From: Candidatus Micrarchaeota archaeon
GTDB taxonomy: Archaea > Micrarchaeota > Micrarchaeia > Micrarchaeales > CABMGC01
NCBI GenBank assembly: GCA_027365175.1
Contig: DAHXNY010000001.1
Coordinates: 51,052-115,051, forward strand
Direction: 5' to 3'
Length of the DNA: 64,000 bases
Shown here: positions 1,810 through 57,198 of the stretch, in pieces
How the letters are laid out: every line of letters starts with the position of its first letter
How positions within the stretch are numbered: position 1 is the stretch's first letter
The notes under the pieces: model-generated
The model's database searches: none
What the model was told of the DNA's origin: nothing
What the model saw: the letters and a program-made list of their open reading frames with translations, nothing else
Translations under genes and position numbers: made by a program

Positions 1810-1828
1810 TGAATAGTGGAACTGCACC
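1810..1828 (+). repeat. exact 19-mer TGAATAGTGGAACTGCACC (copy of 50640-50658) in the metG-mcm divergent intergenic region
   Basis: Identical 19 nt at both loci. It ends 64 nt upstream of the mcm ATG and lies upstream of a ttatataaaa TATA-like element. Confidence 0.8.
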
Positions 1829-1892
1829 GGTAAGCGTAGTTAGTTATATAAAATATCGACATTGAGTTATACTTAGTCAGGGGGCTGATTTT

Positions 1893-3950
1893 ATGGACGT
1901 TATAGAAAAGGAGCAGATAGAGGAGAAGTTCCTTGAGTTTTACAATTCCTATTATATTGACGGGATAAACGAACTGTATCTAGAGTATCCTGAGAGGAGG
2001 AGCATAGACATTGACATAGGCAACCTTGAGAAGTTCGATATTGACCTGGCTACAGAACTCGTAAATGATCCTGATTCGATTCTGCCTGTTGCAAATTCTG
2101 CACTCGCTAAGCTGAATCCGCATGAAAAGGCGAAGGAGCAGGCGCATGCAAGATTCTTCGGGTCTAGCATAGATGCGCCTTTGATACAGAATGTCGGTTC
2201 TGAGTACATAGGCCGTATGATAACCGTGGATTCTTTGGTTGTCAAGAGGTCTGAGATAATACCTAAGATAAGTTTCGCAACCTACAAGTGCATGTTCTGC
2301 GACACTGTAGTAAAGGAGCAGATAACGAAGGAGGAGGTTCCTGAAGTCTGCCCTCAGTGCAAGAGGAAGGCGCTGAAGCAGATAAACAAGGAGTCGGAAT
2401 TCATAAACATGCAGAGGATTGCAGTTCAGGACCCGCTTGAGAAGCTGAAGGGCTCTACTCCAACATGGCAGCTTGAGGTATGGCTTGCGGATGATCTTGT
2501 CAACACCGTTCTTCCTGGAGACAGGGTGGAGATAACGGGCGTTCTGAGGATAAGGCCCAGGCGCGCGTTCCGTGGAAAGGAGGATAAGCTGCTCTTCACT
2601 GTTTTCTTTGAAGCCAACGCGATAATACATAAACAGAAGGAGTTTGCAGAGCTTGACATAACGGATGATGATGAGAGGCAGATAATAGAGCTTTCAAAGG
2701 ACCCGAGGATATTTGAGAAGATTGCAGAATCCATAGCCCCTTCCATATACGGACATGATGATATAAAGAAGGCTCTTGCTCTCCAGCTGTTTGGGGGCAC
2801 TCCGGACAAGCAGCTGATAGACGGAGGAATGATAAGGAACGATATACACATATTGCTCATAGGAGATCCTGGAAGCGCGAAGACAAGACTGCTGCAGGCT
2901 GTGACTAGCCTTGTGCCTAAAGGAATATATGTCAGCGGAAAGTCTACAAGCGCTGCAGGACTCACCGCATCCGCAGAGCGTGATGAGTTCTCTGAAGGCG
3001 GCTGGACGCTCAAGGCAGGTGCTCTGGTATTAGGATCCGGGGGAGAGGTCAGCATAGACGAATTCGACAAGATAGGAGAGGATGACAAATCCGCTCTCCA
3101 CGAAGCCCTGGAATCACAGACGATAAGCGTTGCTAAGGCAGGAATAGTAGCAAGATTCTCTGCGAAGACTTCGGTGCTTGCTGCTGCGAACCCAAAGTAC
3201 GGAAGATTTGAGACTACGGCTTATCCCGTTGACCAGTTCAACATACCTGCGCCGCTCATGTCAAGATTCGACCTGATATTCCCGATAAAGGACGTTATGG
3301 ACGAGGAGCAGGACAAGAAGATAGCAAAGCATATACTCATGCAGCATGAAGTTGCGGGAAATTCAAATGCAGGCATAACGATTGCGTTTGATGAGCTTAA
3401 GAAACCGCCCATGGACCATGAAATTCTTAGAAAGTACATAGCTTATGCAAAGAGGCACGTAAAGCCGAGGCTGACTCCTGATGCGTCTGCAAGGATAGAG
3501 GATTTCTACATACAGCTTAGGTCCAGAGGTGCGAAACAGGGCACTACTCCGATAACTGCAAGGCAGATAGAGGGACTGATAAGGCTTGCAGAGGCAAGTG
3601 CAAAATCCAAGCTTATAGACACGGTATCTGATAAGGATGCAGAATTATCAATAAAGCTGTTTGATTATATGCTGAGCACATTGGGAGTCGATAGCGAGGG
3701 CAGGAGGGACATAGACGTCATAATGGGCATACCTAAGGAGAAGGTGGCGAAGATTGGAAAGCTCCTCAACGTTATAAAGAAGATTGATGCGGAGGAGAAC
3801 GGGGCAAGGATGGTAAGGATCCTTGAAGAGGCAGAGAAGGAAGGTATCGACCGTTCCACAACAACCAGATATATGGCAGAGCTTGAGCGTTCAGGGGATA
3901 TCTACTCTCCTAAACAGGGAGTATATAAGCTTGTAAAGCGTGAGGAGTAG
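1893..3950 (+). CDS. mcm: MCM replicative helicase
   Basis: Zn finger CMFCDT..CPQCKRK, Walker A GDPGSAKT, Walker B SIDEFDK, SRFD arginine-finger region and a C-terminal wHTH. 685 aa with no intein. Confidence 0.95.
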   Translation: MDVIEKEQIEEKFLEFYNSYYIDGINELYLEYPERRSIDIDIGNLEKFDIDLATELVNDPDSILPVANSALAKLNPHEKAKEQAHARFFGSSIDAPLIQNVGSEYIGRMITVDSLVVKRSEIIPKISFATYKCMFCDTVVKEQITKEEVPEVCPQCKRKALKQINKESEFINMQRIAVQDPLEKLKGSTPTWQLEVWLADDLVNTVLPGDRVEITGVLRIRPRRAFRGKEDKLLFTVFFEANAIIHKQKEFAELDITDDDERQIIELSKDPRIFEKIAESIAPSIYGHDDIKKALALQLFGGTPDKQLIDGGMIRNDIHILLIGDPGSAKTRLLQAVTSLVPKGIYVSGKSTSAAGLTASAERDEFSEGGWTLKAGALVLGSGGEVSIDEFDKIGEDDKSALHEALESQTISVAKAGIVARFSAKTSVLAAANPKYGRFETTAYPVDQFNIPAPLMSRFDLIFPIKDVMDEEQDKKIAKHILMQHEVAGNSNAGITIAFDELKKPPMDHEILRKYIAYAKRHVKPRLTPDASARIEDFYIQLRSRGAKQGTTPITARQIEGLIRLAEASAKSKLIDTVSDKDAELSIKLFDYMLSTLGVDSEGRRDIDVIMGIPKEKVAKIGKLLNVIKKIDAEENGARMVRILEEAEKEGIDRSTTTRYMAELERSGDIYSPKQGVYKLVKREE

Positions 3951-8607: not shown

Positions 8608-8795
8608 AAAATCGTATCTGAATGGAATTATGATGATATAAAAGGCTTTTCTTCTGTATTAGACGAATGCGAAGGATTATTTATATTGAATGCCATAATA
8701 AGTTTTGCCCGTAACTGACCGTGGAAATGTTTGTGGAAAATTCGGATACGTGCTGGCAGTCAAGGAGTATGCCTTAACAGTTGATGGAAGAATGA

Positions 8796-8887
8796 TGGGC
8801 CCGAGGAGATTTGAACTCCTGACCTACGGCTAACTTAGGCTTGCGCCGTATAAGACCGCCGCTCTGACCAGGCTGAGCTACGAGCCC
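8796..8887 (-). tRNA. tRNA-Ile(UAU) with a 17-nt canonical (37/38) intron
   Basis: Hand-folded cloverleaf: acceptor GGGCTCG/CGGGCCC, D arm GCTC..GAGC, T arm AGGAG-TTCAAAT-CTCCT, anticodon loop CT-TAT-A|intron|A. The intron (8832-8848) forms a bulge-helix-bulge with central helix CTTA/TAAG, 3-nt bulges TAC and TTA, and an inner stem GGC-GCAA-GCC. The body is close to typical archaeal tRNA-Ile. No CCA is encoded. Confidence 0.85.
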
Positions 8888-8981
8888 ATGATTTATAGGG
8901 ATTAAGTTGCTTTATTTATATGAGTTTCTGTTTAACGGACTTATTTTATATAGCAGTTAATATAATATTATATGTGATTTT

Positions 8982-10283
8982 ATGGATCTTGGAGAAGGCC
9001 TTAGGAAAGCTATCGCAAAACTCAGCGGAGCTACCATAATAGACGCCAGGACCATACGCGAATTCAACAAGGAGCTTCAGCGCGCACTGATATCTTCAGA
9101 CGTGGAGCTCAACCTGGTGATGGCGCTTACCGGCAAGATAGAGAACGCGGCGCTTAAGGAGAAGCTCCCTGACGGGATAAGCCCTAAGGAGTACATAACC
9201 AACATGGTCTACGAGGAGCTTGTGAACCTCATGGGAAAGGATTACTCTCCTGAGATAAAGCCTAAGCGCATACTGCTCATGGGGATATACGGATCGGGTA
9301 AGACCACAACCACAGGAAAGCTTGCTAAATTCTATCAGGACAGAGGCCTGGGCGCAGGAGTAATATGCTGTGACATATCAAGGCCTGCCGCTTATGAGCA
9401 GCTGGAGAGCGTGGCCAAGCAGGCAGGAGTGGGATTCTACGGGATAAAGGGCGGAAAGGATGTAAAGGAGATTGTTAGCAAAGGATTGGAAGAGCTGAAG
9501 AACAAGAAGGTAATCATATGCGATTCTAGCGGAAGGAGCGGTATGGATGCGGAGATGATAACGGAGCTTAAGGAGATTGATGCCTCATTCAGGCCGGATG
9601 AAAGGTTCCTTGTGATAAATGCAGATATAGGACAGGTTGCAGGAAGGCAGGCGCGCGAGTTCGGCTCTGCCGTCGGAATAAACGGAGTGATAGTTACAAA
9701 GATGGATGGGTCTGGAAGAGGAGGGGGAGCACTCAGCGCTGTGAATGAATCCGGAGCCAAGGTAGCTTTCATAGGCACAGGAGAGAAACTTGCAGACCTG
9801 GAGCTTTATGATTCGAAGAAATTTGTCGGCAGGCTGCTGGGAATGCCTGACATAGAGTCGCTTATTGCAAAGGTAAACGAGGCGGCGAAGAGCGTCGGCG
9901 TGAAGGAGATGACTGATATAAACGAACTTAACTTTGACATGTTCTACCAGCAGTTAAAAGCGATGTCAAAGATGGGGCCCATGAAGAACGTATTGGGAAT
10001 GATGGGCCTTGCGGATGTTCCCAAGGAGATGGTAGAAGGAGGTGAGAGCAAGCTTAAGATTTACGAGTCTATAATAGGGTCTATGACAAAAGCGGAGAGG
10101 AACGATGAGAAATTGGTCAGGAATCCGGATAGGATAAGAAGAATCGCAAAAGGAAGCGGGAGGACGGAAAAGGACGTGAGAGGTTTGCTGAATGACTTCA
10201 ACAGGATGAAGAAGATTGCAGGACTTATGAAGAATGACAGGGCATTCAAGAAAAACTTCTCAAAATTTGCAGGAATGAAATGA
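8982..10283 (+). CDS. srp54: signal recognition particle protein SRP54
   Basis: GTPase motifs GIYGSGKTTT, DSSGR and TKMDG, plus a Met-rich M domain. SD GTGA lies 4 nt upstream of the ATG. Confidence 0.95.
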   Translation: MDLGEGLRKAIAKLSGATIIDARTIREFNKELQRALISSDVELNLVMALTGKIENAALKEKLPDGISPKEYITNMVYEELVNLMGKDYSPEIKPKRILLMGIYGSGKTTTTGKLAKFYQDRGLGAGVICCDISRPAAYEQLESVAKQAGVGFYGIKGGKDVKEIVSKGLEELKNKKVIICDSSGRSGMDAEMITELKEIDASFRPDERFLVINADIGQVAGRQAREFGSAVGINGVIVTKMDGSGRGGGALSAVNESGAKVAFIGTGEKLADLELYDSKKFVGRLLGMPDIESLIAKVNEAAKSVGVKEMTDINELNFDMFYQQLKAMSKMGPMKNVLGMMGLADVPKEMVEGGESKLKIYESIIGSMTKAERNDEKLVRNPDRIRRIAKGSGRTEKDVRGLLNDFNRMKKIAGLMKNDRAFKKNFSKFAGMK

Positions 10284-20514: not shown

Positions 20515-20701
20515 CTGGTCTTTGGTTCATGGCCCTTTCTGTTGACATTTACGTCATCAAAAACCACGTGTTGGCATGGCTTCGGACTCGGATTAATATT
20601 GTAGTTCGCATAACGTTAGCAAAGGCATATAAACCTTAGTATTCTATAAATAGCGGAAGTGTCTGTGCTAGTCCCTACTCTTTATCTTTATAGGTGTATG
20701 T

Positions 20702-24254: not shown

Positions 24255-26798
24255 ATGAAAACCGAGGTAATCAATTATATAAAATTCGGAGTGATGAACC
24301 CCGAGTATGTCAAGGCTCTTGGGGTAGTGAAGCTTACCGTTCCGGACACATATAATGAGGACGGATACCCTATAGACGGAGGGCTGCTTGACCAGCGCCT
24401 CGGTGTGATTGACCCTGGATTGATATGCAAGACCTGCGGAGCGCGTGCCAAGTCCTGCCCGGGACATTTTGGCAGGATAGAGCTCGTAAGGCCTGCGATA
24501 CACTCTGAATTCGGGAAGACCCTGTACATGATACTGCAATCGACATGCAGAAACTGCAACAGGCTGCTTCTGGACGATGAGAGCCTTGCAAAGTACAGGG
24601 GAGAGAAGCTTGACCCTGACAGCATAGCCGTTGAAGGAGAAGAGGGAGCTGTAGAGGTCAAGAGCGCGATGCTTAAGAGACTTAAGGACATAAAGAAGTG
24701 CGAGAGATGCGGCACTCAGAAGAAGAAGCTTAAGTTCTCGCTGCCAACATACTTCTACGTTGAAGATTACAAGCTTAAGCCTAATGAGATAAGAGATATG
24801 GTATCCAAGATAAGCAATGATGATCTTGAGATACTCGGCATAGATGCTGAGAATGCGAGGCCAGAATGGCTCATACTTGATATACTGCTCGTGCCTCCTG
24901 TAAATGTAAGGCCGTCTATCACTCTTGAGAGCGGAGAGAGGAGCGAGGACGAACTTACACACAAGCTCGTAGACATAATGAGGATAAACCAGAGGCTGGA
25001 ACAGAACCTCAATGCAGGCGCACCGCAGATAATAATAGACGATCTTTGGGAGCTCCTCCAGTATCACGTTACTACATACTTCAACAATGAGACATCGAAT
25101 ATTCCTCCTGCAAGGCACAGGAGTGGAAGGGCCCTTAAGACCCTTACCCAGAGACTGAAGGGCAAGGAGGGAAGATTCAGGTACAACCTCAGCGGAAAGC
25201 GTGTCAACTATTCAGCAAGAACCGTAATCAGCGTTGATCCAAATGTAGATATAGACGAGGTAGGGGTGCCGTTTGCCATAGCTTCCAAGCTTACCGTCCC
25301 GTTCTATGTGACCGAGTGGAACATAGAGCATGCAAAGAAGATGCTCATGTCGAATGATTATCCTGCTGTGCTGAATGTGATAAGCAAGGATGGCAAGAGA
25401 AAGCGCGTCATAGATACCAATAAGGAAGAGATAGAGAAGGAACTTTCTGCAGGAGACATAATGGAGAGGCAACTTGTCGATGGAGATATAGTGCTTTTCA
25501 ACAGGCAGCCTTCGCTTCACCGTATGTCGATCATGGCCCACAAGGCAAAGGTGCTTCCTGGAAAGACCTTCAGGATCAACCTCTGCGTAGCGGCACCTTA
25601 TAACGCAGACTTCGACGGAGACGAGATGAACCTGCACGTGCCGCAGACGCTTGAGGCAAGGGCGGAAGCAAAGATACTGATGATGTCATCACACCAGGTC
25701 TTCTCCCCTAAGGAAGGAGATGTGATAATAGGTACGGAGCAGGATGGAATAACAGGAGCGTATGAAATGACTGATGAGGATGCTTACGTTACAAAAGAGG
25801 AGGCCGTTTACCTTCTTTCAGTAGCAGGGATATATGACTTGCCAAAAGAGGGCAAGAACGGCATGTACAGGGCCAGAGATGTCTTCTCTATGCTCTTCCC
25901 TAAGGGACTGGACTTTGAAGCCGAGACCAAGAGAGGGCACATCAAGATAAAGGATGGCCAGCTTGTAGAGGGAAGGATGGACAATGGCACAATCGGAAGA
26001 GGCGGCAACAAGCTCTTCATGAAGATACGCACCGATTACGGATTCGAGGAGCTCAAGAAGTTCATATACAGCTCTGCAAAGATGGTAAACGCATATGTAA
26101 CCCTGATGGGCTTCAGTCTTGGAGTAAAGGAGTATGTGAATGATGAAAGGCTTGTAAGGGATAGGAAGCGCATGCTTGACGAGACCTTCGAGAAGATAAA
26201 TAAGCTCATAGCGGATTACAACGACGGAAAGCTTGAGGCACTCATAGGTTACACCCTGAAGAGCTCTCTGGAAAGGATGATAATAGCGGAATTGAACCTG
26301 GTGAGAGACAAAGCAGGAAAGGATATAATCAAGACAAAGGCAGATGACAAGGAGAAGAATACGGCTATGGACATGGTATCTTCAGGTGCGAGAGGAAACA
26401 TACTCAACGTAGTACAGATGATGATGTTCCTTGGACAGCAGGCAACAATATCAGGAGGCAGGATAAACCGTGGTTACGCCACAAGAAGAGCCCTGCCGCA
26501 CATACTTCCTGGAGATCTCTCCCCTAAGGGAAGAGGTTTTGTAACGACATCGTTCTACGGAGGCCTTGACCCTATAGATTTGTTCATGCATGCAGTAGGT
26601 TCAAGAGGTTCTGAGATATACAAGGCGTTGCTGACGGCAAGAAGTGGATATCTTTATAGGAGATTGTCCAACGCGCTGCAGGACTACTATGTAGATATAG
26701 ACTATAGCGTGAGGGACGCGAGCAACAACCTTATAGAGACGGAGTATGGAGGAGACAGGCTGGACCCTATGTACACGAAGGTAATTGAGGTAGAGTGA
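24255..26798 (+). CDS. rpoA1: RNA polymerase subunit A'
   Basis: Zn motifs CKTCG..CPGHFG and the catalytic [10 protein letters not shown]. The ORF track start is 24243. ATG 24255 is preferred because it sits behind GAGTGA-N4. Confidence 0.95.
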
Positions 26799-40745: not shown

Positions 40746-41900
40746 TCATGGCTGCATCCAATCTATCTCATAATAGTCGTTTTTGCTGCCTTTAAGGCGA
40801 ATCTGCCTTACCTTGTAGTACGTGACTGCAGTCTCCCTATCGGCTATGGCAAGTATCAGCTCGAGGCCCTTCCTGCTTGCGCTCTTTATGGCTCCGGATA
40901 TCTCGCTCCCGCCTATGTGCTCATCCTCGCTGAGAGAGAGCATGGCATATCTTGGTGCTCCGTTGGACGGGTTCTCTGCCTCCCCTCCCCTCCTGTGATA
41001 CAGGATATAGTCTACAGCAATATTGTTCGCCCTTGCTGATCCTGGTATTGCGAGTATGAAGGTCTTCCTTACGGAATGCGCAACCCTTATCGCCCTTGCC
41101 CATTCCGATATAAGCATCTTGGCATCCTTTGGAAATACCTGTATGACATGCTTTGAGTGCGTCCATCCGTTCGTAGTGTTTGTAGGTTTTGCCCCGGGGA
41201 AATAGACCCTGAAGTGGGTGCCGAACTTGAACCCTGTCTTTATCACATAGCCCTTCTCCCTCCAGTCCTTGTATACCGAATAGAGTTTTAGGAAGTCTTT
41301 CCTTCCGGCATTCCCGTTGTCTATCAGCTCCGCACGCGTTGCGTTATTTATGTTTACTGTCCTGCTCTCTGTAAGGAATAATGCCTCGAATATATCTATC
41401 TTGTTTAGCTTTCCCCTCTCAGAGGCTTTGTATGAGCCGTATTGGCCTATCCAGTAATTGTCGTACAGCTCTTTTCCCTTTTCATTGTCCTTAAGTATTG
41501 TTATGAGGTCTGTCTTGAAGAAGGTGCCGCTTATCCCTATTGCCTTTATCTTTAGCTTTGACCCCGGATACTCCTTTATCTTTGCCTTTGCGCGTTTGGC
41601 ATATTTGAAATCAGGCTCCTTTATTATTAGCCCCCGGTCCCTCCAGTCCTTGTAAGTAAGATATCGGGCTATGAACTTGCGGTTGTTCCAGAACCTTGAG
41701 ATAGAGTCGTTGAATGAGATAATTTTGCCTGCTTTTGTGCACTCCGCGTTGCGCAGTTCCATTAGATAAAGCGCTTCCACATTTGAAAGGACAAGGGTCT
41801 TCTTTTCCTGCTTCCCGAAGAACCCTTTCTTCAGTATGTCCTTGGTGGATTGGTCCTTGACTGTGAATCTTCCGCCTGGAGAGCTATCGATCTTGAGCAT
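40746..41900 (-). CDS. endA: tRNA-splicing endonuclease, three-unit single-chain (epsilon2/ARMAN type)
   Basis: The EndA N-subdomain plus linker occurs twice (EALYLMELRNA..YLTYKDWRDRGLIIK and FEALFLTESR..YSVYKDWREKGYVIKTGFKFGTHFRVY). A catalytic HSKHVIQV follows, then a third C-terminal-like unit (RYAMLSLSE..RKGLELILAIADRETAVTYYKV). 384 aa. Confidence 0.8.
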   Translation of the reverse strand: MLKIDSSPGGRFTVKDQSTKDILKKGFFGKQEKKTLVLSNVEALYLMELRNAECTKAGKIISFNDSISRFWNNRKFIARYLTYKDWRDRGLIIKEPDFKYAKRAKAKIKEYPGSKLKIKAIGISGTFFKTDLITILKDNEKGKELYDNYWIGQYGSYKASERGKLNKIDIFEALFLTESRTVNINNATRAELIDNGNAGRKDFLKLYSVYKDWREKGYVIKTGFKFGTHFRVYFPGAKPTNTTNGWTHSKHVIQVFPKDAKMLISEWARAIRVAHSVRKTFILAIPGSARANNIAVDYILYHRRGGEAENPSNGAPRYAMLSLSEDEHIGGSEISGAIKSASRKGLELILAIADRETAVTYYKVRQIRLKGSKNDYYEIDWMQP

Positions 41901-44713: not shown

Positions 44714-44957
44714 ATAAACTCCCCAGATTTTTGTAGATAGGAAGCTGCTTATGCCCCGATATAACAGGGGATTAGCGTTCCCAATATTAAATAAGATACA
44801 TTAATATATAATAAGGAGTGTGTAAAAAAAGAAAAGATAGTTGAATATAGTAGGAAGAGGCCAGCAGCGTTTTCACGTGCTGGCAAGGCGACCAGTTACT
44901 CCTCCTCTGATAAAGAACTCGTACTGTAGAGCTCGTTTTAAAGATTTAAAAATCTTT

Positions 44958-44970
44958 CTGAATAGTGGAA
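44958..44970 (+). repeat. 13-nt partial copy (ctgaatagtggaa) of the 19-mer motif found at 1810 and 50640
   Basis: Exact 13-mer shared with 50639-50651. It lies between an atttaaaaat TATA-like element (44943-44952) and ATG 44979. Confidence 0.5.
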
Positions 44971-44978
44971 TAGAGTAT

Positions 44979-45638
44979 ATGGTGAACTTCCTTACCCTTG
45001 ATGGAAAGGCTGCGGTCCTTGCAGTGCTTATAGGTGTACTCATAGTGCTGTTCGGAGGGGCTTACGGCTTGTTCTTCCTTGCAGTAATAGTACTCTTCCT
45101 TGCCTTTTCCGCCATCGTTACTAATGTCGGCATAGGGATGAAGAAGAGGATAAAGGTGTATGAGGCCAAGAGAGGCTGGAAGAATGTTGTCGCAAACGGC
45201 ATAATACCTCTCGTAATAGTCATCCTTTACTGGCACTTCGGGAGCCTGGTGCCGGATCCGACAGTGTTTGTAGTGGCATATGTGGCAAGCGTGGCAGGAA
45301 CCACCGCTGACAAGTTCGCAAGCGAACTGGGAGTGCTTGGAGAAACGCCGGTATCCATAATCACGTTCAGGAAGGTGAAGAAAGGGGTATCTGGAGGAGT
45401 TACAGTCTTCGGTACGGTTTCAAGCCTCATAGGGGCCGCACTTATAGGATTCTCAGGCATGGCGATCGGTCTGCCTCCTGCCTATTTGGTAATAATAGCT
45501 GTTGCCGGGCTGCTCGGGTCTGTTGTAGACTCGGTTGCAGGCCATTTTGAGGAGAATGGAATAGGCAATAAGTATACCTCCAACATACTCTGCGCCATAG
45601 CGGCTGCGCTGATAGCTTATGCGGTCATCGCTTTGTGA
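44979..45638 (+). CDS. DUF92/TMEM19-family integral membrane protein
   Basis: Polytopic, with a GTTADKFASELG motif. I prefer ATG 44979 (MVNFLTLDG) to the ORF-track start 44841, which would read through a promoter-like region. Confidence 0.6.
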   Translation: MVNFLTLDGKAAVLAVLIGVLIVLFGGAYGLFFLAVIVLFLAFSAIVTNVGIGMKKRIKVYEAKRGWKNVVANGIIPLVIVILYWHFGSLVPDPTVFVVAYVASVAGTTADKFASELGVLGETPVSIITFRKVKKGVSGGVTVFGTVSSLIGAALIGFSGMAIGLPPAYLVIIAVAGLLGSVVDSVAGHFEENGIGNKYTSNILCAIAAALIAYAVIAL

Positions 45639-50090: not shown

Positions 50091-50537
50091 TTAGCCTATT
50101 TTCTCTCCTATATTGTTTTCTATTATAAACATAACATCGTCATTGCTGTTTATATCTATTATCTCGTTTTTGTTGTATGGCCCTAGTTTTGTGCCAGTGT
50201 TTGTTATTATTTCTGGTACGTCCATATTTATCTTGATTTTGGTAGAATTTTGTATTTTACCTTTCTTCAAAACCGCTCTTATTTTAGAATATATCTCGTT
50301 TTCCTCATCAGCGACTTCGTTGCCTATCTGCTTGTCATATGCAATGTACATTAGTATTTTCTGGGTCCTTTTTTCTTTTAGAAAGCCTAGTGTGTTGGTG
50401 ATGTTTGTCTTTTCAACCTCATTTTTGGAGTTTCTGACCAGCTCTTCAGCTTCCTTATAAAAATCTTTTTTCATAGGGAGGAGTTTGCTTGTGTTCTTCT
50501 CTTTTTTATAAAAATCTATAAGATCTAAGTAATCCAT
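50091..50537 (-). CDS. GINS-family protein (Gins51/COG1711-like, tentative)
   Basis: The N-terminal helical A-domain pattern is LIDFYKKEK..LLPMKKDFYKEAEELV..KRTQKILMYIAY. The small C-terminal B-domain pattern is INMDVPEIITNTGTKLGPYNKNEIIDI..DVMFIIENNIGEKI. Confidence 0.55.
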   Translation of the reverse strand: MDYLDLIDFYKKEKNTSKLLPMKKDFYKEAEELVRNSKNEVEKTNITNTLGFLKEKRTQKILMYIAYDKQIGNEVADEENEIYSKIRAVLKKGKIQNSTKIKINMDVPEIITNTGTKLGPYNKNEIIDINSNDDVMFIIENNIGEKIG

Positions 50538-50549
50538 TTTTACACAACA

Positions 50550-50659
50550 GGGTTGAGTTCCACTAATATTTTATTTTTCTTTGCAAAATAAAAATAAATA
50601 CTAAAGCGTAATTTACTACTATATATTATATAAGTAACCTGAATAGTGGAACTGCACCC
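50550..50659. repeat. inverted 16-bp repeat (GGGTTGAGTTCCACTA / TAGTGGAACTGCACCC) flanking a 78-bp AT-rich spacer
   Basis: The arms match 14/16 after reverse-complementing. The spacer has 13 G/C in 78 nt by hand count. The right arm is embedded in a 19-mer that recurs exactly at 1810-1828. Confidence 0.8.
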
Positions 50660-50668
50660 TCTACTGTA

Positions 50669-50743
50669 TAGCGAGAGGTGGATTTGAACCACCGATCTCC
50701 GGGTTATGAGCCCGGCGGGCACTCCAGTCTACCCTACCTCGCT
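50669..50743 (-). tRNA. initiator tRNA-Met(CAU)
   Basis: Hand-folded with an A1:U72 acceptor end (AGCGAGG/TCTCGCT). The anticodon stem CCGGG/CCCGG carries three consecutive G:C pairs above the loop CTCATAA. T arm GGTGG-TTCAAAT-CCACC. Confidence 0.85.
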
Positions 50744-50776
50744 ACTGTAATATCAGAAGGACAAGATTACTTTACC

Positions 50777-51565
50777 TTACTTACTTTTTAAACCTTTTAT
50801 AAAAAGCTTGGCATTCTCCCTATCTACCATATCAAGCTTGCTTCCACAGTCTGAGCATTTAAAGCTATATTCCAGAGCAGAATCGAAAGGAAGCACTATC
50901 ATGTTGTTTTCATAGCATTTCTTGCACAAGAAGAAGTCATTGCAGTTCTCAGGGAGAACCGCCTCAGCAGCAACAGGTGCGTTCTTATGCATATTTGCAT
51001 ACTCGGAAAGCTTTTCAGCATCTATCCTCCATGTAAAAATGAGCCAGCCGCTATTGTCCTTAGTCACATCGTACTTGGTTATTCCATGGCCATTCATCAT
51101 GTTAAGCGCCCTCCTTACCTCATTTATCTTCATCTCAAGCTTCTCCGCAAGCTTCTCATCTGTCTGGGGCTTCTTATAAAGGATCTTAACTATATCCACA
51201 GACCTATCCCCTACTGTGGTGGTCAGATGCTCAGTGAAATAAGGATCAGTAAAAACCTCCTCAACAACCTTCATATCATGCTTTCTCTGCTCATGCTCCA
51301 AAACCTCAGCTTCCTTCTCCCTGCGCTCCTTCAGGCTCTCCTTAACAACAGCCTTGGGCATTATTTTGGCATTCTTGTGAACGTCCTTAACATTAACTAC
51401 TGCCTTCTTTACAGCGTGCTGCCCCTGTTGCGTTGAATGCACTACTGCCTTGTGCGGCTTTATGCGCAGATGCGCCTTATTTGCCTTCTTTGCAGTAGGC
51501 TTTGGATGAACCTTATTCTTAGAACTACTTCCTCTGTTTTTGTTTGGTTTTGGCATGAGGATCAC
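50777..51565 (-). CDS. tfe: transcription factor E (TFE alpha / TFIIE-alpha homologue) with ~100-aa basic N-terminal extension
   Basis: Winged helix (SVDIVKILYKKPQTDEKLAEKLEMKINEVRRALNMM..GWLIFTWRID) and a Zn ribbon (CKKC...CSDCGSKL). The start is GTG 51565 or ATG 51556. Confidence 0.8.
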   Translation of the reverse strand: MILMPKPNKNRGSSSKNKVHPKPTAKKANKAHLRIKPHKAVVHSTQQGQHAVKKAVVNVKDVHKNAKIMPKAVVKESLKERREKEAEVLEHEQRKHDMKVVEEVFTDPYFTEHLTTTVGDRSVDIVKILYKKPQTDEKLAEKLEMKINEVRRALNMMNGHGITKYDVTKDNSGWLIFTWRIDAEKLSEYANMHKNAPVAAEAVLPENCNDFFLCKKCYENNMIVLPFDSALEYSFKCSDCGSKLDMVDRENAKLFIKGLKSK

Positions 51566-51806: not shown

Positions 51807-52693
51807 GGTTGTCTTCTCTTCCTGGCTGCGCCAGCCATATTCATCATGATAAGGCTTGCAAGATGTGCGGTTATCCCCCCGGAATCATACCTGGGGTTCA
51901 GCTCCATCACATCAAAACCAAGATTTACGCTCTTTCCTATAGTAGAAGCAATATATAATATTTCCCTTGCTGCAAGACCGCCAGGCACCGGGGTGCCGAC
52001 TCCAGGAGCGAATGCAGGATCAACAGAGTCAAGGTCTATAGAGACATACACATTGTCTGTTATTATGCTTCTTGCATACTTCGAAACAGCAACTATCCCC
52101 TCCTCTATTATCCTGTCCATTCCAACAAACTTGATCCCTGCTTCTTCAACTACGGCCTTCTCCTCCCTCTCTATAGCACGAGCTCCTATTATCAGGCTCG
52201 AGCTAGGCTCAACATTCTCCAAAGCAAGAACATCATGCACCACCGAACCGTAATATCTTCCGGCAGAGCCTATGCTGTCAGGGTGCGCATCTATATATAC
52301 AAAACTCCACGAATCAACGCAAGAATCTATGCCCTTAAGTATGTCATAGGTTATCGAATGGTCTCCCCCTATGCAACCCACCACTCTCTTATCTAAAACC
52401 TGCCTCCTTGCAAAACCCGCCGTCCTTGCCTTCGAGATGTTCCCGGCATCATAACAATTAAGCGCACCCAAACCTAACCTGCTATACATGACAGATAAAC
52501 CATTTCCCCTCTTTACAGCATCGAATTTCACAGACGCTGCCCTTGCAGCAGCCGGGCCACCTGAACTTCCCCTCCTAGGCGCCCTTGAGCCTCTCTCACT
52601 CGCAACTCCAAATACGACAGTATCTGCATCTTTTTCACCAGGAGAGGTGCACCACGGGAAAACAAGTTTTCTGCCTTTTGCCAAAAATAACAC
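51797..52693 (-). CDS. speB: agmatinase/ureohydrolase (arginase family)
   Basis: Mn-binding motifs GGDHSITY, IDAHPD and SIDLDSVDPAFAPGVGTP. The 3' end overlaps tRNA-Lys by 10 nt on the same strand. Confidence 0.85.
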   Translation of the reverse strand: MLFLAKGRKLVFPWCTSPGEKDADTVVFGVASERGSRAPRRGSSGGPAAARAASVKFDAVKRGNGLSVMYSRLGLGALNCYDAGNISKARTAGFARRQVLDKRVVGCIGGDHSITYDILKGIDSCVDSWSFVYIDAHPDSIGSAGRYYGSVVHDVLALENVEPSSSLIIGARAIEREEKAVVEEAGIKFVGMDRIIEEGIVAVSKYARSIITDNVYVSIDLDSVDPAFAPGVGTPVPGGLAAREILYIASTIGKSVNLGFDVMELNPRYDSGGITAHLASLIMMNMAGAARKRRQPGP

Positions 52694-52862: not shown

Positions 52863-54767
52863 ATGGCTGACGAAACTTACGATGCTTCAAAGATAATTGT
52901 GCTTGAAGGAGCGCAGGGCATACGTAAGAGACCGTCGATGTATATAGGCTCAACAGGACCTTCCGGGATAATACACCTGCTGTACGAAGTTATGGATAAC
53001 GCGGTAGACGAATCCTCTGCAGGATACTGCAAAGACATAAAGATAAAACTGTACAAGCAGGACGGAGCAGACATAGCCGAGATATCTGACGACGGAAGGG
53101 GGATACCTGTAGGGATAATGGAAAAGTACGGAAAGAGCGCTCTCGAGGTCATAATGACAACACTGCACAAAGGGGCTAAATTCGAAAATGATGTTTACAA
53201 GGTATCTGGAGGACTCCATGGGGTGGGGCTTACCGTTGTAAACGCGTTGTCAGAATTCACAGAAGTCACGGTAAAAAGAAACGGTAACATATACAGGCAG
53301 ACCTTCAGCAGGGGGCTGCCAACATCAAAGCTCGAAGTTATAGGGGAGACCAAAGAGACAGGAACAACAGTAAAATTCAAGCCGGACCCGGAGATATTCA
53401 GCGTGAATACATTTGACATAGCGATGCTGAACGAAAGGTCCAGATACATCAGCTACACCAACGTCGGACTGCGTATCATAATAACGGATGAGCGCTTTGG
53501 GGACAAAGTGGAGGAGACCTATTATTCTGAAAACGGAATAATAGATTTTGTAGAGTATATAAACAGGGAAAGGTCTCCTATAACTTCTATAATATACGGC
53601 AAAACCACAGCAGATTCTACTACTGTAGAGTATGCGATGCAGTACACAGAATCATACGATGAAAAGATAGAATCCTTCGTAAACAGCATAAAAATGAATG
53701 AAGGAGGGACGCACCTTTCAGGCTTCCATGCAGCGTTGACAAGGGCAATAACGAATTATATAGACAAGAACAAGTCTCTCAACGCAAAGGCGAAGGTAAC
53801 CGGAGACGATGCAAAGGAAGGCCTTACTGCCATAGTCAGCATAAAGATGCAGAATCCGGAATTCGAGGGCCAGACCAAGGAAAAATTGGGAAACGTGAAG
53901 ATGAAGACCCTCGTAGAGACCTTTGCATACCAGAGCATTTCAAGGTATCTGGAGGAGCACCCTTCCGATGCCAAGTCAATAATAAGGAAGATAACTGAGG
54001 CAGCAAATGCGCGCGACGCTGCAAGGCGCGCACGCGAACTTGAGAGGAAGAAGAGCATATTCTCAAGCGCGGTTCTCCCTGGCAAGCTATCTGACTGCAT
54101 ACTCAGCGACCCTGAAAAGACCGAGCTCTTCATAGTAGAGGGAGAGAGCGCAGGAGGGTCGAGCAAGCAGGGAAGGGACAAGAACATACAGGCAATACTC
54201 CCATTAAGGGGAAAGATACTCAATGTAGAGAAGGCAAGCTACGAAAAGATATTCGATAACAAGGAGATAAAAACCATGATTACTGCCTTTGGCACAGGCA
54301 TAAACGAGACCTTCAATGCCGCAAACATACGCTACAAGAAGATAATAATAATGACCGATGCCGACGTTGACGGAAGCCACATAAGGACACTGCTGCTTAC
54401 GTTCTTTTACAGGTACATGCGCAAGATAATAGAACTCGGATACGTGTATGCTGCACAGCCCCCGCTCTATAGGATCGGGAAGGGCAAGGACGAATACTAC
54501 TGTTATAGCGATGAAGAGCTCAATGAGAAGCGCAAGGAGTACGGGGAGAACGTAGAGATACAGAGATACAAAGGACTCGGAGAGATGAACTACGAGCAGC
54601 TATGGGAAACAACCATGAACCCGAAGAACAGGAAGCTCAAGAAAATATCTATAGAAGACGGCCTTCATGCTGACGAACTCTTCACCATACTCATGGGCGC
54701 TGACGTAGCCAAGAGGAGGAGATATCTGCAGGAGCATGCAAAGGAGGTAAAAACACTTGACATATAG
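52863..54767 (+). CDS. gyrB: DNA gyrase subunit B
   Basis: GHKL ATPase motifs (LYEVMDNAVDE, GGLHGVG), Toprim motifs (EGESAGGS, IMTDADVDGSHI) and QRYKGLGEM. Confidence 0.95.
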   Translation: MADETYDASKIIVLEGAQGIRKRPSMYIGSTGPSGIIHLLYEVMDNAVDESSAGYCKDIKIKLYKQDGADIAEISDDGRGIPVGIMEKYGKSALEVIMTTLHKGAKFENDVYKVSGGLHGVGLTVVNALSEFTEVTVKRNGNIYRQTFSRGLPTSKLEVIGETKETGTTVKFKPDPEIFSVNTFDIAMLNERSRYISYTNVGLRIIITDERFGDKVEETYYSENGIIDFVEYINRERSPITSIIYGKTTADSTTVEYAMQYTESYDEKIESFVNSIKMNEGGTHLSGFHAALTRAITNYIDKNKSLNAKAKVTGDDAKEGLTAIVSIKMQNPEFEGQTKEKLGNVKMKTLVETFAYQSISRYLEEHPSDAKSIIRKITEAANARDAARRARELERKKSIFSSAVLPGKLSDCILSDPEKTELFIVEGESAGGSSKQGRDKNIQAILPLRGKILNVEKASYEKIFDNKEIKTMITAFGTGINETFNAANIRYKKIIIMTDADVDGSHIRTLLLTFFYRYMRKIIELGYVYAAQPPLYRIGKGKDEYYCYSDEELNEKRKEYGENVEIQRYKGLGEMNYEQLWETTMNPKNRKLKKISIEDGLHADELFTILMGADVAKRRRYLQEHAKEVKTLDI

Positions 54768-54774
54768 TGGGAGT

Positions 54775-57198
54775 ATGACCGAAGTACAAAACGTATTTTT
54801 AGAGGATGAGCTGCAAAGGAGCTACATAGACTACGCGATGAGCGTAATCATAGGCAGAGCCATCCCTGACGCCAGAGACGGACTCAAACCGGTGCAAAGA
54901 AGAATACTATACACAATGTACGGCCAGAAGAACTTCCACAACCTGCCTACAAAGAAGAGTGCCAGGATAACAGGAGACTGCATGGGTAGATATCACCCTC
55001 ACGGAGACATGGCGATATACGATGCTCTTGCAAGGATGACGCAGGACTTCTCCATGAGGTACATGCTAGCGGAAGGGCAGGGAAACTTCGGTTCTATAGA
55101 CGGGGATCCTCCGGCAGCAATGAGGTATACGGAGGTAAAGCTTACCAAGATCTCTGAGGATATGCTCGAGGACCTAGACAAAGAGACTGTGAACCTTGTC
55201 CCCAATTTCGACAACACTGAAAAGGAGCCTACAATACTGCCTTCAAAGATACCGAACCTGCTTGTCAACGGCGCAACCGGCATAGCAGTAGGCGTGGCAA
55301 CAAGCATTCCCCCTCACAACCTTGGGGAGGTATGCGAAGCTGTAATTTACCGCATAAAGAATAAGGAAAGCACACCGGAAGACATACTGAAGATAATAAA
55401 AGGCCCTGACTTCCCTACAGGTGGCATAGCTGTAATGTCAGCAAACGCGCTAAACGGATATAAGTACGGCAGAGGCCAGGTATCTGTAAAGGCAAAGGCG
55501 GAAATAGATGACGAACTCCACAAAATAATAATCACCGAAATACCTTACAACCTCAACAAATCCTCCTTGATAGAGGGAATAGTAAACATAGTGAAGGACA
55601 AAAAAACCGAAGACATAAAGGACATAAGGGACGAGACCGACAAGAGCGGCATACGTATTGTCATAGACCTGAAAAACGGTGCGTCAGGGGAATCGGTACT
55701 CAACACCCTCTACAGGCACACCCAGCTGCAGACAACAATGCCGATAATAAATCTTGCAGTGATAGATACTGCCCTCAAGAACCTGAACATAGTCGACATG
55801 CTCGACGCGTTCATCAACCACCGCAGGGAAGTAATACTTAGAAGATCAAAGTACGAGCGCGAAGTCGCTGCAAACAGGCTGCACATAGTGGAGGGCCTGC
55901 TAATAGCAATAACCAACATAGACGACGTAATTAAGCTGATAAAAAGCAGCGACGAAGTCTCCGGAGCAAGGAAGAAGCTCGTAAAGGATTACGCCCTGTC
56001 AGAGAAGCAGGCAACTGCGATACTTGACATGAAACTCAGCAGGCTTACCCATCTTGAAAACAACTCGCTGGACAGGGAGAAGACCGAACTGCAGGGCAAG
56101 GTCAAATACTACAACGAAGTAATAGATAGCAGCGAAAAAATAGACGGGATAATAATACAAGAAACCGAGAAGGCGATAAAGGACTATGCAGACAAAAGAA
56201 GGACTGAGATAGTATACTCGGACGAGTCCGCGGACATAACTGAGGAAGACATGATCACAGACGAAGAGATAACGGTGATAAGGACAAAGACAGGATATGT
56301 CAAGAGGCTGAACAAGGAGAACTACAGGGAGCAGGCGAGGGGAGGAAAGGGGATCATATCGATAAACCTGAAAGAGGGAGACTATGTCAACCAGATACTC
56401 CGCTGCAATAATAAGGACTTCATACTCTGCATAACAAGCACCGGAAGGGCATACTGGCTAAAAGCATACAAAATACCCGAAACAGGAAGATATTCAGAAG
56501 GCAAATCGATAGTAAATCTGATACACGCAGAAGAAGAGAAGATAGTCTCAATGATACCTATACGCAATTTCGAAGCATCGACAATGGCGTTCATAACTGC
56601 AAGAGGCACTGCGAAGAGGATGAGCGCAAGGCTGTTTGCACGGCCAAGATCCAACGGAGTGCGTGCTATAAAACTGGCAGCGGGAGACGAGATTGTAGAC
56701 GCGATATGCTACTCTGCCAAGAAATACCTGTTAATCTCCACAAAGAAAGGCAAAATAATCAAGTTCGAAGAGCAGAGCATGAGGACAATAGGAAGGACAG
56801 GTATGGGGGTCAGAGGAATAAAGCTCAGGCAGGACGACAGAGTAACGAATATAATAGCCGCAAGTGAGTTCGGAAGCGTCTTCACAGTCACTGAGAAGGG
56901 ATACGGCAAGATCACCGAGATAACCAGGTACAGGACGCAGAACAGGGGAGGAAAGGGGATCATAAACCTGAAGGTTTCAGAAAAGACCGGGGATGTATCA
57001 AAGACACTATACATGTCACACGAGCAGCAGGCGATACTGATAAATTCAAAGGGAGTGAGCATAACGATACCCACTTCATCTATCAGGGTAACCGGAAGGG
57101 CAGCGTCAGGGGTCAGGCTGATGAAGGTTGAACAAGGGACAAAGATAATAGACTGCATCATACTTAACGAGGAGCAGCAAAAACCCGCAGAGGTTTAA
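54775..57198 (+). CDS. gyrA: DNA gyrase subunit A
   Basis: Motifs [19 protein letters not shown] and AAMRYTE (catalytic Tyr), plus a C-terminal beta-pinwheel repeat region. ATG 54775 is preferred. The ORF track start is TTG 54757. Confidence 0.95.

Follow-up and report, generated by a model that had tools for sequence, protein, structure and literature searches.

A conserved pair of ORB-like boxes between tRNAi-Met and the GINS gene of Micrarchaeota: a candidate replication origin and promoter element

Archaeal replication origins built from origin recognition boxes (ORBs) are well known. The functional core of Sulfolobus oriC1, in which a duplex-unwinding element (DUE) lies between two ORBs (ORB3-DUE-ORB2), measures 130 bp, and its inverted ORBs each bind one Orc1-1 monomer with a defined polarity (PMC12141716). 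The archaeal ORB consensus is CTTCCAGTGGAAACGAAAGGGGT, and that of the Methanomassiliicoccales is GTTCCAGTGGAAATGG-AGGGGTA (PMC4153887); the mini-ORB of Pyrococcus abyssi is TTCCAGTGGAACT (PMC1904270). No replication origin has been described for Micrarchaeota or other DPANN archaea in the literature that we searched. Here, we report a 128-bp element at positions 50541-50668 of a 64,000-nucleotide stretch of DNA from Candidatus Micrarchaeota archaeon (contig DAHXNY010000001.1, positions 51,052 to 115,051; hereafter “the window”), situated between an initiator tRNA-Met (tRNAi-Met) and a GINS23-like gene. We put the probability that this element is an ORB-DUE-ORB chromosomal replication origin, overlapping and controlling the promoter of the GINS operon, at roughly 55%.

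The element shares its general plan with Sulfolobus oriC1, with Pyrococcus oriC and with the ORB pairs of the Methanomassiliicoccales. Inverted asymmetric boxes stand around an AT-rich stretch, an AGTGGAA core is followed, in the distant relatives, by an (A)GGGGT string, the total length is about 130 bp, and the whole is placed at a nucleotide-disparity extreme beside a replication gene.

The two 16-nt boxes, GGGTTGAGTTCCACTA at 50550-50565 (read as TAGTGGAACTCAACCC on the minus strand) and TAGTGGAACTGCACCC on the plus strand at 50644-50659, are inverted copies that match at 14/16 positions, and the arms of the inverted repeat reach 25 nt (50541-50565 and 50644-50668) with 80% complementarity. 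The spacer between them (50566-50643) contains 13 G/C, compared with 45.9% GC for the whole window. It is among the three 78-mers of lowest GC content in the window, where 0.06% of 78-mers hold 13 G/C or fewer; its low GC content is extreme, yet not unique within the window. A first-pass annotation of this DNA, made from the letters alone, had described the boxes, their inverted match and the G/C count of the spacer, and all were exact on recount; its estimate of a GC content in the mid-40s % was also close to the measured value. An inverted 16-mer pair matching at 14 or more positions arose in 1/300 shuffles of the intergenic region. A degenerate form of the 16-mer matched the window five times against 1.2 expected, a number reached in 0/100 shuffles, and the 9-mer AGTGGAACT occurred three times against 0.4 expected. 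The 19-mer TGAATAGTGGAACTGCACC at 50640-50658 has an exact second copy at 1810-1828, located 64 nt before the start codon of MCM (1893), which bears out the recurrence before mcm that had been noticed at first reading. The spacer also carries the promoter signals of the GINS operon: TTATATAA (50626-50633) lies 6 nt from the distal box, and a second TATA-like signal, AAAAATAAAATAT on the minus strand (50566-50578), abuts the proximal box. The latter ends 12 nt before the GINS-like ATG at 50537, in agreement with the distance first given.

The arrangement is maintained among relatives. We compared orthologous loci from relatives with GINS identities of 94, 77, 70, 45, 44, 41 and 35%. All of them, including the most distant at 35%, retained the module of tRNAi-Met, box, AT-rich spacer, box and GINS, and the inverted pair was present at the same syntenic position in 10/10 lineages, so that the conservation on which the first-pass annotation had made its proposal depend was found. 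The adjacency of tRNAi-Met and the element was repeated in lineages L135, L137, L144, L145 and L162. Across the ten lineages the core-to-core gap was 70-78 nt (mode 73-74) with 18-27% GC, in loci of 41-54% GC. Because the gap and its AT-richness are held while the sequence diverges until it is unalignable between distant lineages, the length and composition of the spacer are constrained, and its sequence is not. The distal box is nearly invariant, with a GGGGT tail in L143, L145 and L162, and the proximal box occurs as TAACGGAAC, TAGTGGAAT, TACTGGAAG and TAGTGGCAA. The proximal box of most lineages follows immediately on a TATA-like run, and the start codon comes 7-12 nt after it. Over the genome collection, the strict pattern TGAATAGTGGAACTSYACC matched only the GINS-distal box of four Micrarchaeota species, apart from one chance match in Acidobacteriales; a scan of viral contigs with ATAGTGGAACTNNACC returned at least 120 scattered single matches. 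The annotated GTG start of the GINS gene in L162 falls inside the proximal box (9997-10009), and this start codon was probably mis-called.

The boxes themselves resemble ORBs. A likeness to the ORB core had been proposed in the first-pass annotation, and the comparison substantiates it: the 9-mer AGTGGAACT is common to the P. abyssi mini-ORB and the window box, and the boxes of distant relatives follow the pattern AGTGGAA-N3-(A/T)GGGGT with their tails directed away from the spacer (TAGTGGAACTGAGGGGT and TAACGGAAGTGTGGGGT in L143, TACTGGAAGTGAGGGGT in L144, TAGTGGACATGTGGGGT and TAGTGGCAATCTGGGGT in L145, and TAGTGGAACCATGGGGT in L162). The AGTGGAA half and the AGGGGT tail occur in all four of these lineages, whereas in the window lineage ACCC replaces GGGG on both arms and ACCG stands at mcm. 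The absence of a G-string had been raised as an objection to an origin. It is true of the window lineage, but the objection falls because relatives carry GGGG at that position and the two arms of L162 carry GGGG and CCCC, respectively. Since L162 mixes the two, a G:C tract on either strand seems to be what is required of the tail; in this respect the element differs from the described ORB origins, as its G-string may be a C-string in the window lineage and on one arm of L162. Boxes extended by a G:C tail were found at the GINS locus only, in 230 kb of non-redundant Micrarchaeota DNA. Since the motif is asymmetric and its single copies lie in either orientation, it would fit a monomeric, polar binder; by analogy with Orc1-1 on ORBs, we infer that the protein recognizing the box is of this kind.

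The position of the element coincides with a switch in strand composition. Third-codon-position skews were calculated per gene, and because plus- and minus-strand genes were handled separately, the coding-strand effect was removed. The coding-strand AT skew at third positions (AT3) of plus-strand genes was 0.00 to the left of the element (n = 20) versus +0.38 to the right (n = 5; p = 4e-5), and that of minus-strand genes was +0.25 (n = 23) versus -0.13 (n = 6; p = 2e-4); the two classes therefore shift in opposite directions across the element. GINS has a top-strand AT3 of -0.30 and TFE one of +0.28; the two are same-strand neighbours with nothing but the tRNA and the element between them. The GC skew at third positions (GC3) switches at the same place, but more weakly: its strand-asymmetry component, for which the value of minus-strand genes is subtracted from that of plus-strand genes and the result halved, changes from +0.064 left of the element to -0.058 right of it. 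A switch of identical polarity was observed in five lineages besides the window (L003, L006, L144, L145 and L162), and it is not a property of particular genes because L162 shows it with different TFE-side genes. Comparison with the skew extremum had been suggested when the element was first noticed, and a change-point scan gave its best position between 50537 and 50777, at the element. The skew switch places a replication-linked landmark on the element. The coordinates of the features are listed in Table 1.

Table 1. Features of the element and of the related single boxes (positions are those of the window).
Feature	Position	Strand	Description
Proximal ORB-like box	50541..50567	-	Minus strand reads ATTAGTGGAACTCAACCCTGTTGTGTA; 13-nt core at 50555-50567; tail CAACCC
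AT-rich spacer, putative duplex-unwinding element	50566..50643		78 nt, 17% GC
Distal ORB-like box	50640..50668	+	TGAATAGTGGAACTGCACCCTCTACTGTA; core at 50642-50654; tail GCACCC; abuts the 3' end of tRNAi-Met
GINS23-like gene	50091..50537	-	148 aa; first gene of the GINS-L44e-eIF2alpha-PAC2 cluster
Initiator tRNA-Met(CAT)	50668..50744	-	Left-hand neighbour in transcription order
Single box before mcm	1810..1829	+	TGAATAGTGGAACTGCACCG; precedes the TATA box TTATATAAAA of mcm (1893-3950) by 15 nt
Single core box before the rpoH-rpoB-rpoA operon	20649..20661	+	AATAGCGGAAGTG; 14 nt upstream of TATA-like CTTTATCTTTATAGG; 19.3 bits
Single core box before a hairpin RNA	44959..44972	+	Minus strand reads ATTCCACTATTCA, then GAAAG and ATTTTTAAAT (BRE/TATA-like; BRE, transcription factor B recognition element)

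The genes on both sides of the element were identified as follows. The label “GINS-like”, already attached to the gene at first reading, is supported by matches to NCBIfam Gins23 (E 1.5e-5) and to the GINS structure PDB 7yil (E 0.02) and by the precomputed Pfam assignment GINS23_N. Direct reading of the tRNA-Met(CAT) shows that A1 pairs with U72 and that the anticodon stem contains three G:C pairs, and because of these features we assign it as the initiator tRNA, as had been proposed. Rfam matched only tRNAs in the window and in the relatives' loci. The order on the minus strand is TFE-alpha homologue, tRNAi-Met, element, GINS23-like, L44e, eIF2-alpha and PAC2. The GINS gene cluster is syntenic in the loci of the relatives. 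The TFE-alpha homologue adjoining tRNAi-Met (50777-51565, minus strand; 262 aa) has orthologues of 219-290 aa in L002-L013, L144, L145 and L162; the window protein is extended at its N-terminus by about 100 aa without a match in Pfam, and its TFIIE_alpha domain covers residues 115-188 only. The DNA gyrase B and A genes (52863-57198) lie 2.2 kb from the element with transcription pointing away from it, a neighbourhood also present in L144 and L145 and absent from L162. Farther away, tRNA-Ile(TAT) at 8794-8888 is 95 nt long, which suggests an intron, and a gene for a tRNA-splicing endonuclease is located at 40746-41900.

Our analysis revealed that the core of the box also occurs at other promoters. 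With a 13-nt matrix derived from the boxes at GINS and mcm, the 230 kb gave 26 matches of at least 13 bits, 20 of them intergenic, compared with about 7 in shuffles. All single core boxes lack the G:C tail. Before mcm, GAATAGTGGAACT is kept at 80-98% MCM identity while the flanks diverge, and in L150, L155, L158, L159 and L142 the mcm TATA is preceded at a distance of 3-25 nt by a core box, which in most cases has the opposite orientation. The box at 44959-44972 precedes a hairpin RNA that is conserved and unannotated and is situated between radA and DUF92 (minus strand, about 44850-44915), and the arrangement of box, BRE/TATA and hairpin RNA was also observed in L143, L145 and L162. Furthermore, L142 carries a core box (3888-3900) before the rpoD TATA, and L155 carries one before an 81-aa open reading frame (ORF). 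Two matches were set aside: that at 26282-26300 (AATAGCGGAATTGAACCTG, 19.4 bits) falls within the coding region of rpoA' and probably arose by chance, and that at 51894-51909 (3 mismatches) lies within an arginase-family gene. The 13-bp mini-ORBs outside Pyrococcus oriC are comparable to the core boxes, as they are single ORB cores, including AGTGGAACT, that exist besides the long ORBs of the origin. However, the isolated mini-ORBs of P. abyssi were unbound in chromatin immunoprecipitation on microarrays (ChIP-chip) and their positions are unconserved between species, whereas the single boxes of Micrarchaeota are conserved in TATA-proximal positions at mcm and the small RNA.

Some of these loci have features of their own. 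At 6520-6560 of L158, whose MCM is 45% identical, two boxes stand tail to tail (AATAGTGAACTGACC and TCACTTCCACTATTCA) 3 nt before the mcm TATA, the opposite of the arrangement of the GINS pair. Some MCM proteins of Micrarchaeota (P0104 and P0106) are 1050 aa long and contain the intein domains PF14528 and PF14890. The hairpin small RNA reads ...GGAGGAGTAACTGGTCGCCTTGCCAGCAC...GCTGCTGGCCTCTTCC, has its own BRE/TATA and matches no Rfam family; copies are located at approximately 13030-13095 in L145, 4255-4320 in L143 and 13075-13140 in L162. The DUF92 ORF call in the window (44841-45638) overlaps this RNA and probably starts too early.

Several results weigh against an origin. Archaeal origins are usually recognized by an adjacent initiator gene (PMC4010727, PMC3528665), and the element has neither orc1/cdc6 nor whiP beside it. 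Pfam scans of about 50 ORFs and a search with an Orc1 profile built from 1FNN, 2QBY_A and 2V1U_A detected no orc1/cdc6 in the 64-kb window, which reaches 50 kb to one side of the element and 13 kb to the other; the absence reported at first reading was therefore reproduced. In L144, L145 and L162 none was detected up to 10 kb to each side of the element, and in L142 none up to 10 kb to each side of mcm; the Orc1 profile likewise matched nothing in the other Micrarchaeota loci analysed. A metagenome scan with MCM as the query returned 14 loci, which supplied mcm promoters and contained no orc1. The boxes of Micrarchaeota lack the 5' TTCC half of the ORB dyad, their linker to the G-string is 3 nt versus 4-5 in the consensus, and the pair consists of two members only, with no cluster of boxes. 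Gene orientation shows no clear divergence around the element. The core box recurs promoter-proximally at genes unrelated to replication, and because of this recurrence the distal box could be an ordinary upstream promoter element. The polarity of the skew switch is also unfavourable: the top strand is G/T-rich on the left and A/C-rich on the right, and third positions on the strand that leads 5' to 3' out of the element are rich in A and in C. This is the pattern of a bacterial terminus, and it is opposite to that of P. abyssi oriC, which lies at a peak of the amino-keto (MK) disparity.

These points must be viewed together with what is known from other archaea. Ori3 of Haloferax volcanii coincides with local maxima of the third-position and non-coding cumulative GC skew, a behaviour described as “very different from bacteria” (PMC12999951), and the polarity of the element is the one reported for this origin. 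Because Ori3 shows the polarity of the element, the sign of the skew cannot separate an origin from a terminus, and polarity counts only weakly against an origin. The cumulative GC skew of the whole sequence has its maximum near 48-50 kb; whole-sequence GC skew and gene orientation over the 64 kb did not discriminate between the two. The distance from oriC to cdc6 is 453 kb in Thermococcus litoralis and 349 kb in T. sibiricus, and the origins of Thermococcales lie near radA (PMC4640148). In all lineages examined here, radA lies 3-6 kb from the element. A second, orc1-linked origin may be present elsewhere in the genome.

The locus could alternatively be a purely transcriptional module, in which the core box is recognized by a sequence-specific factor, perhaps an Orc1 paralogue that is not an initiator, as with Sulfolobus Orc1-2, and no replication starts; we regard this as rather doubtful, together with the regulon that it would entail (mcm, the GINS operon, the small RNA and RNA-polymerase genes) and a GINS promoter with two sites, one an activating site upstream and the other an operator that covers the transcription start. 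Such a module would account for the core boxes located 3-25 nt upstream of TATA at mcm (at least six lineages), the small RNA (four lineages), rpoH, rpoD and the ORF of L155, and the predominantly intergenic matches, well above the total expected from shuffles, also argue for it. The distal GINS box shares its box-BRE-TATA layout with the single-box promoters, and the proximal box, between the TATA-like run and the ATG, occupies the classic position of an archaeal repressor. The operator considered in the first-pass annotation has accordingly gained support, both from this position in most lineages and from the recurrence of the core at promoters. An Orc1 paralogue with such a role is documented: Sulfolobus Orc1-2 is described as a transcription factor and global regulator (PMC9738581). 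However, a transcriptional module leaves unexplained why the skew switch falls exactly at this intergenic region in six lineages, why the GINS pair alone has G:C tails and long arms, and why an AT-rich gap of 73-74 bp is held despite sequence turnover. Scattering of the motif through unrelated promoters had been named beforehand as evidence against an origin; it was observed for the core, at the small-RNA, rpoH and rpoD promoters, but not for the extended boxes, which in the 230 kb are confined to the GINS locus.

The remaining explanations are less compatible with the data. The element might mark a replication terminus, where forks would converge and the boxes would bind a fork-barrier, dimer-resolution or segregation protein. 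The polarity of the third-position GC and AT switch and the cumulative GC-skew maximum are those of a bacterial terminus, opposite to P. abyssi oriC, and on either side about 55-60% of the coding bases are oriented toward the element, a weak fit to converging forks. We consider a terminus improbable, since the boxes are ORB-like and the neighbourhood is a conserved core of information-processing genes, not a plastic region, and third-position polarity is unreliable in archaea, given that Haloferax Ori3 lies at a maximum. The dif/XerA site of archaeal termini is likewise a single-copy, sequence-defined landmark at a skew switch, but it comprises 28 nt with two 11-bp arms and a 6-bp centre (PMC4640148). 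A dif site was ruled out, as the arms of the element are 73-74 bp apart and no conserved 28-bp sequence was found in the spacer among the loci of the relatives; neither in the window nor in these loci is a gene for an Xer-type recombinase conserved near the element. Archaea are also not known to have a sequence-defined fork trap. The arms might instead pair in a read-through transcript formed from the tRNA trailer and the GINS leader, or in a cruciform, and serve as a processing or attenuation stem. The minus-strand RNA indeed folds with the arms paired (-35.1 kcal/mol, z = -4.7), 83% of cells are paired over six lineages, and five pairs have changed on both sides. This explanation is nevertheless very unlikely: the changes on both sides are confined to the G:C tail and would be explained equally by concerted evolution of two sites for one protein, the GGGG and CCCC tails of L162 have the same strand sense and are unable to pair, L144 has 5 mismatches in 16, the core exists as a single copy in either orientation at other promoters, and T-runs read in the spacer would end the tRNA transcript before the second arm. 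Finally, a short element of 128 bp with terminal inverted repeats around AT-rich DNA might recall a generic repeat, a miniature transposable element or a chance similarity. The likelihood of this appears negligible, since the pair keeps one syntenic position over lineages 35-95% identical in the flanking protein, is not multi-copy in the 230 kb, matches the strict 19-mer pattern at this locus only in four Micrarchaeota species genomes plus one unrelated match, and is rarely equalled in shuffles. One syntenic locus per genome fragment also rules out a miniature inverted-repeat transposable element.

An origin and an operator had been put forward as alternatives, and our results support both and indicate that they are not exclusive, although the absence of a nearby orc1/cdc6, the terminus-like polarity and the core at unrelated promoters stand against the proposal. 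In the combined form that we favor, an origin overlapping the GINS-operon promoter, each inverted asymmetric box would bind one monomer of an Orc1/Cdc6-type initiator. Each box contains the core (A/T)TAGTGGAA(C/G)T and, three bases further along, a G:C tract. The tails are directed outward, and the boxes flank the AT-rich stretch of 73-74 bp, where MCM would be loaded and the duplex would open. The distal box lies 6 nt upstream of TATA and the proximal box between the second TATA-like run and the start codon, and occupancy by the initiator would also set transcription of the GINS-L44e-eIF2alpha operon. The single tail-less core boxes at the TATA boxes of mcm, the small RNA and rpoH would be regulatory sites for the same protein or a paralogue.

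More tentatively, one initiator-type box may perform a double duty: the extended pair would act as an origin unlinked to orc1/cdc6, and the single copies would couple transcription of mcm, the GINS operon, the RNA-polymerase genes and the small RNA to the status of the origin or initiator. With similar reserve, such a box might be regarded as an archaeal counterpart of the bacterial DnaA regulon, with a strand polarity opposite to the bacterial rule. Bacterial DnaA boxes, which serve both at an origin and at promoters, and Sulfolobus Orc1-2, an Orc1 paralogue that acts as a transcription factor, are functional analogues, but they are not members of the same family. DnaA belongs to a different protein family, and the Orc1-2 motif, ANTTTC, is unrelated in sequence to the putative box.

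What is new here is the clade, the variant box, which combines half of the dyad with a short linker and a tract of G or C, the lack of a neighbouring initiator gene, the skew polarity, and the reuse of the core at mcm, GINS and other promoters. If the origin is confirmed, Micrarchaeota would add another archaeal origin that is uncoupled from its initiator gene, and they would be the second lineage after Haloferax in which the third-position skew is opposite to the bacterial rule. A candidate conserved throughout the group would offer a fixed landmark by which metagenome-assembled genomes could be oriented and checked and growth could be estimated from read depth. Given that the core is reused before mcm, GINS and other genes, it can be proposed, and tested, that a replication-linked regulon is under the control of archaeal initiators or their paralogues.

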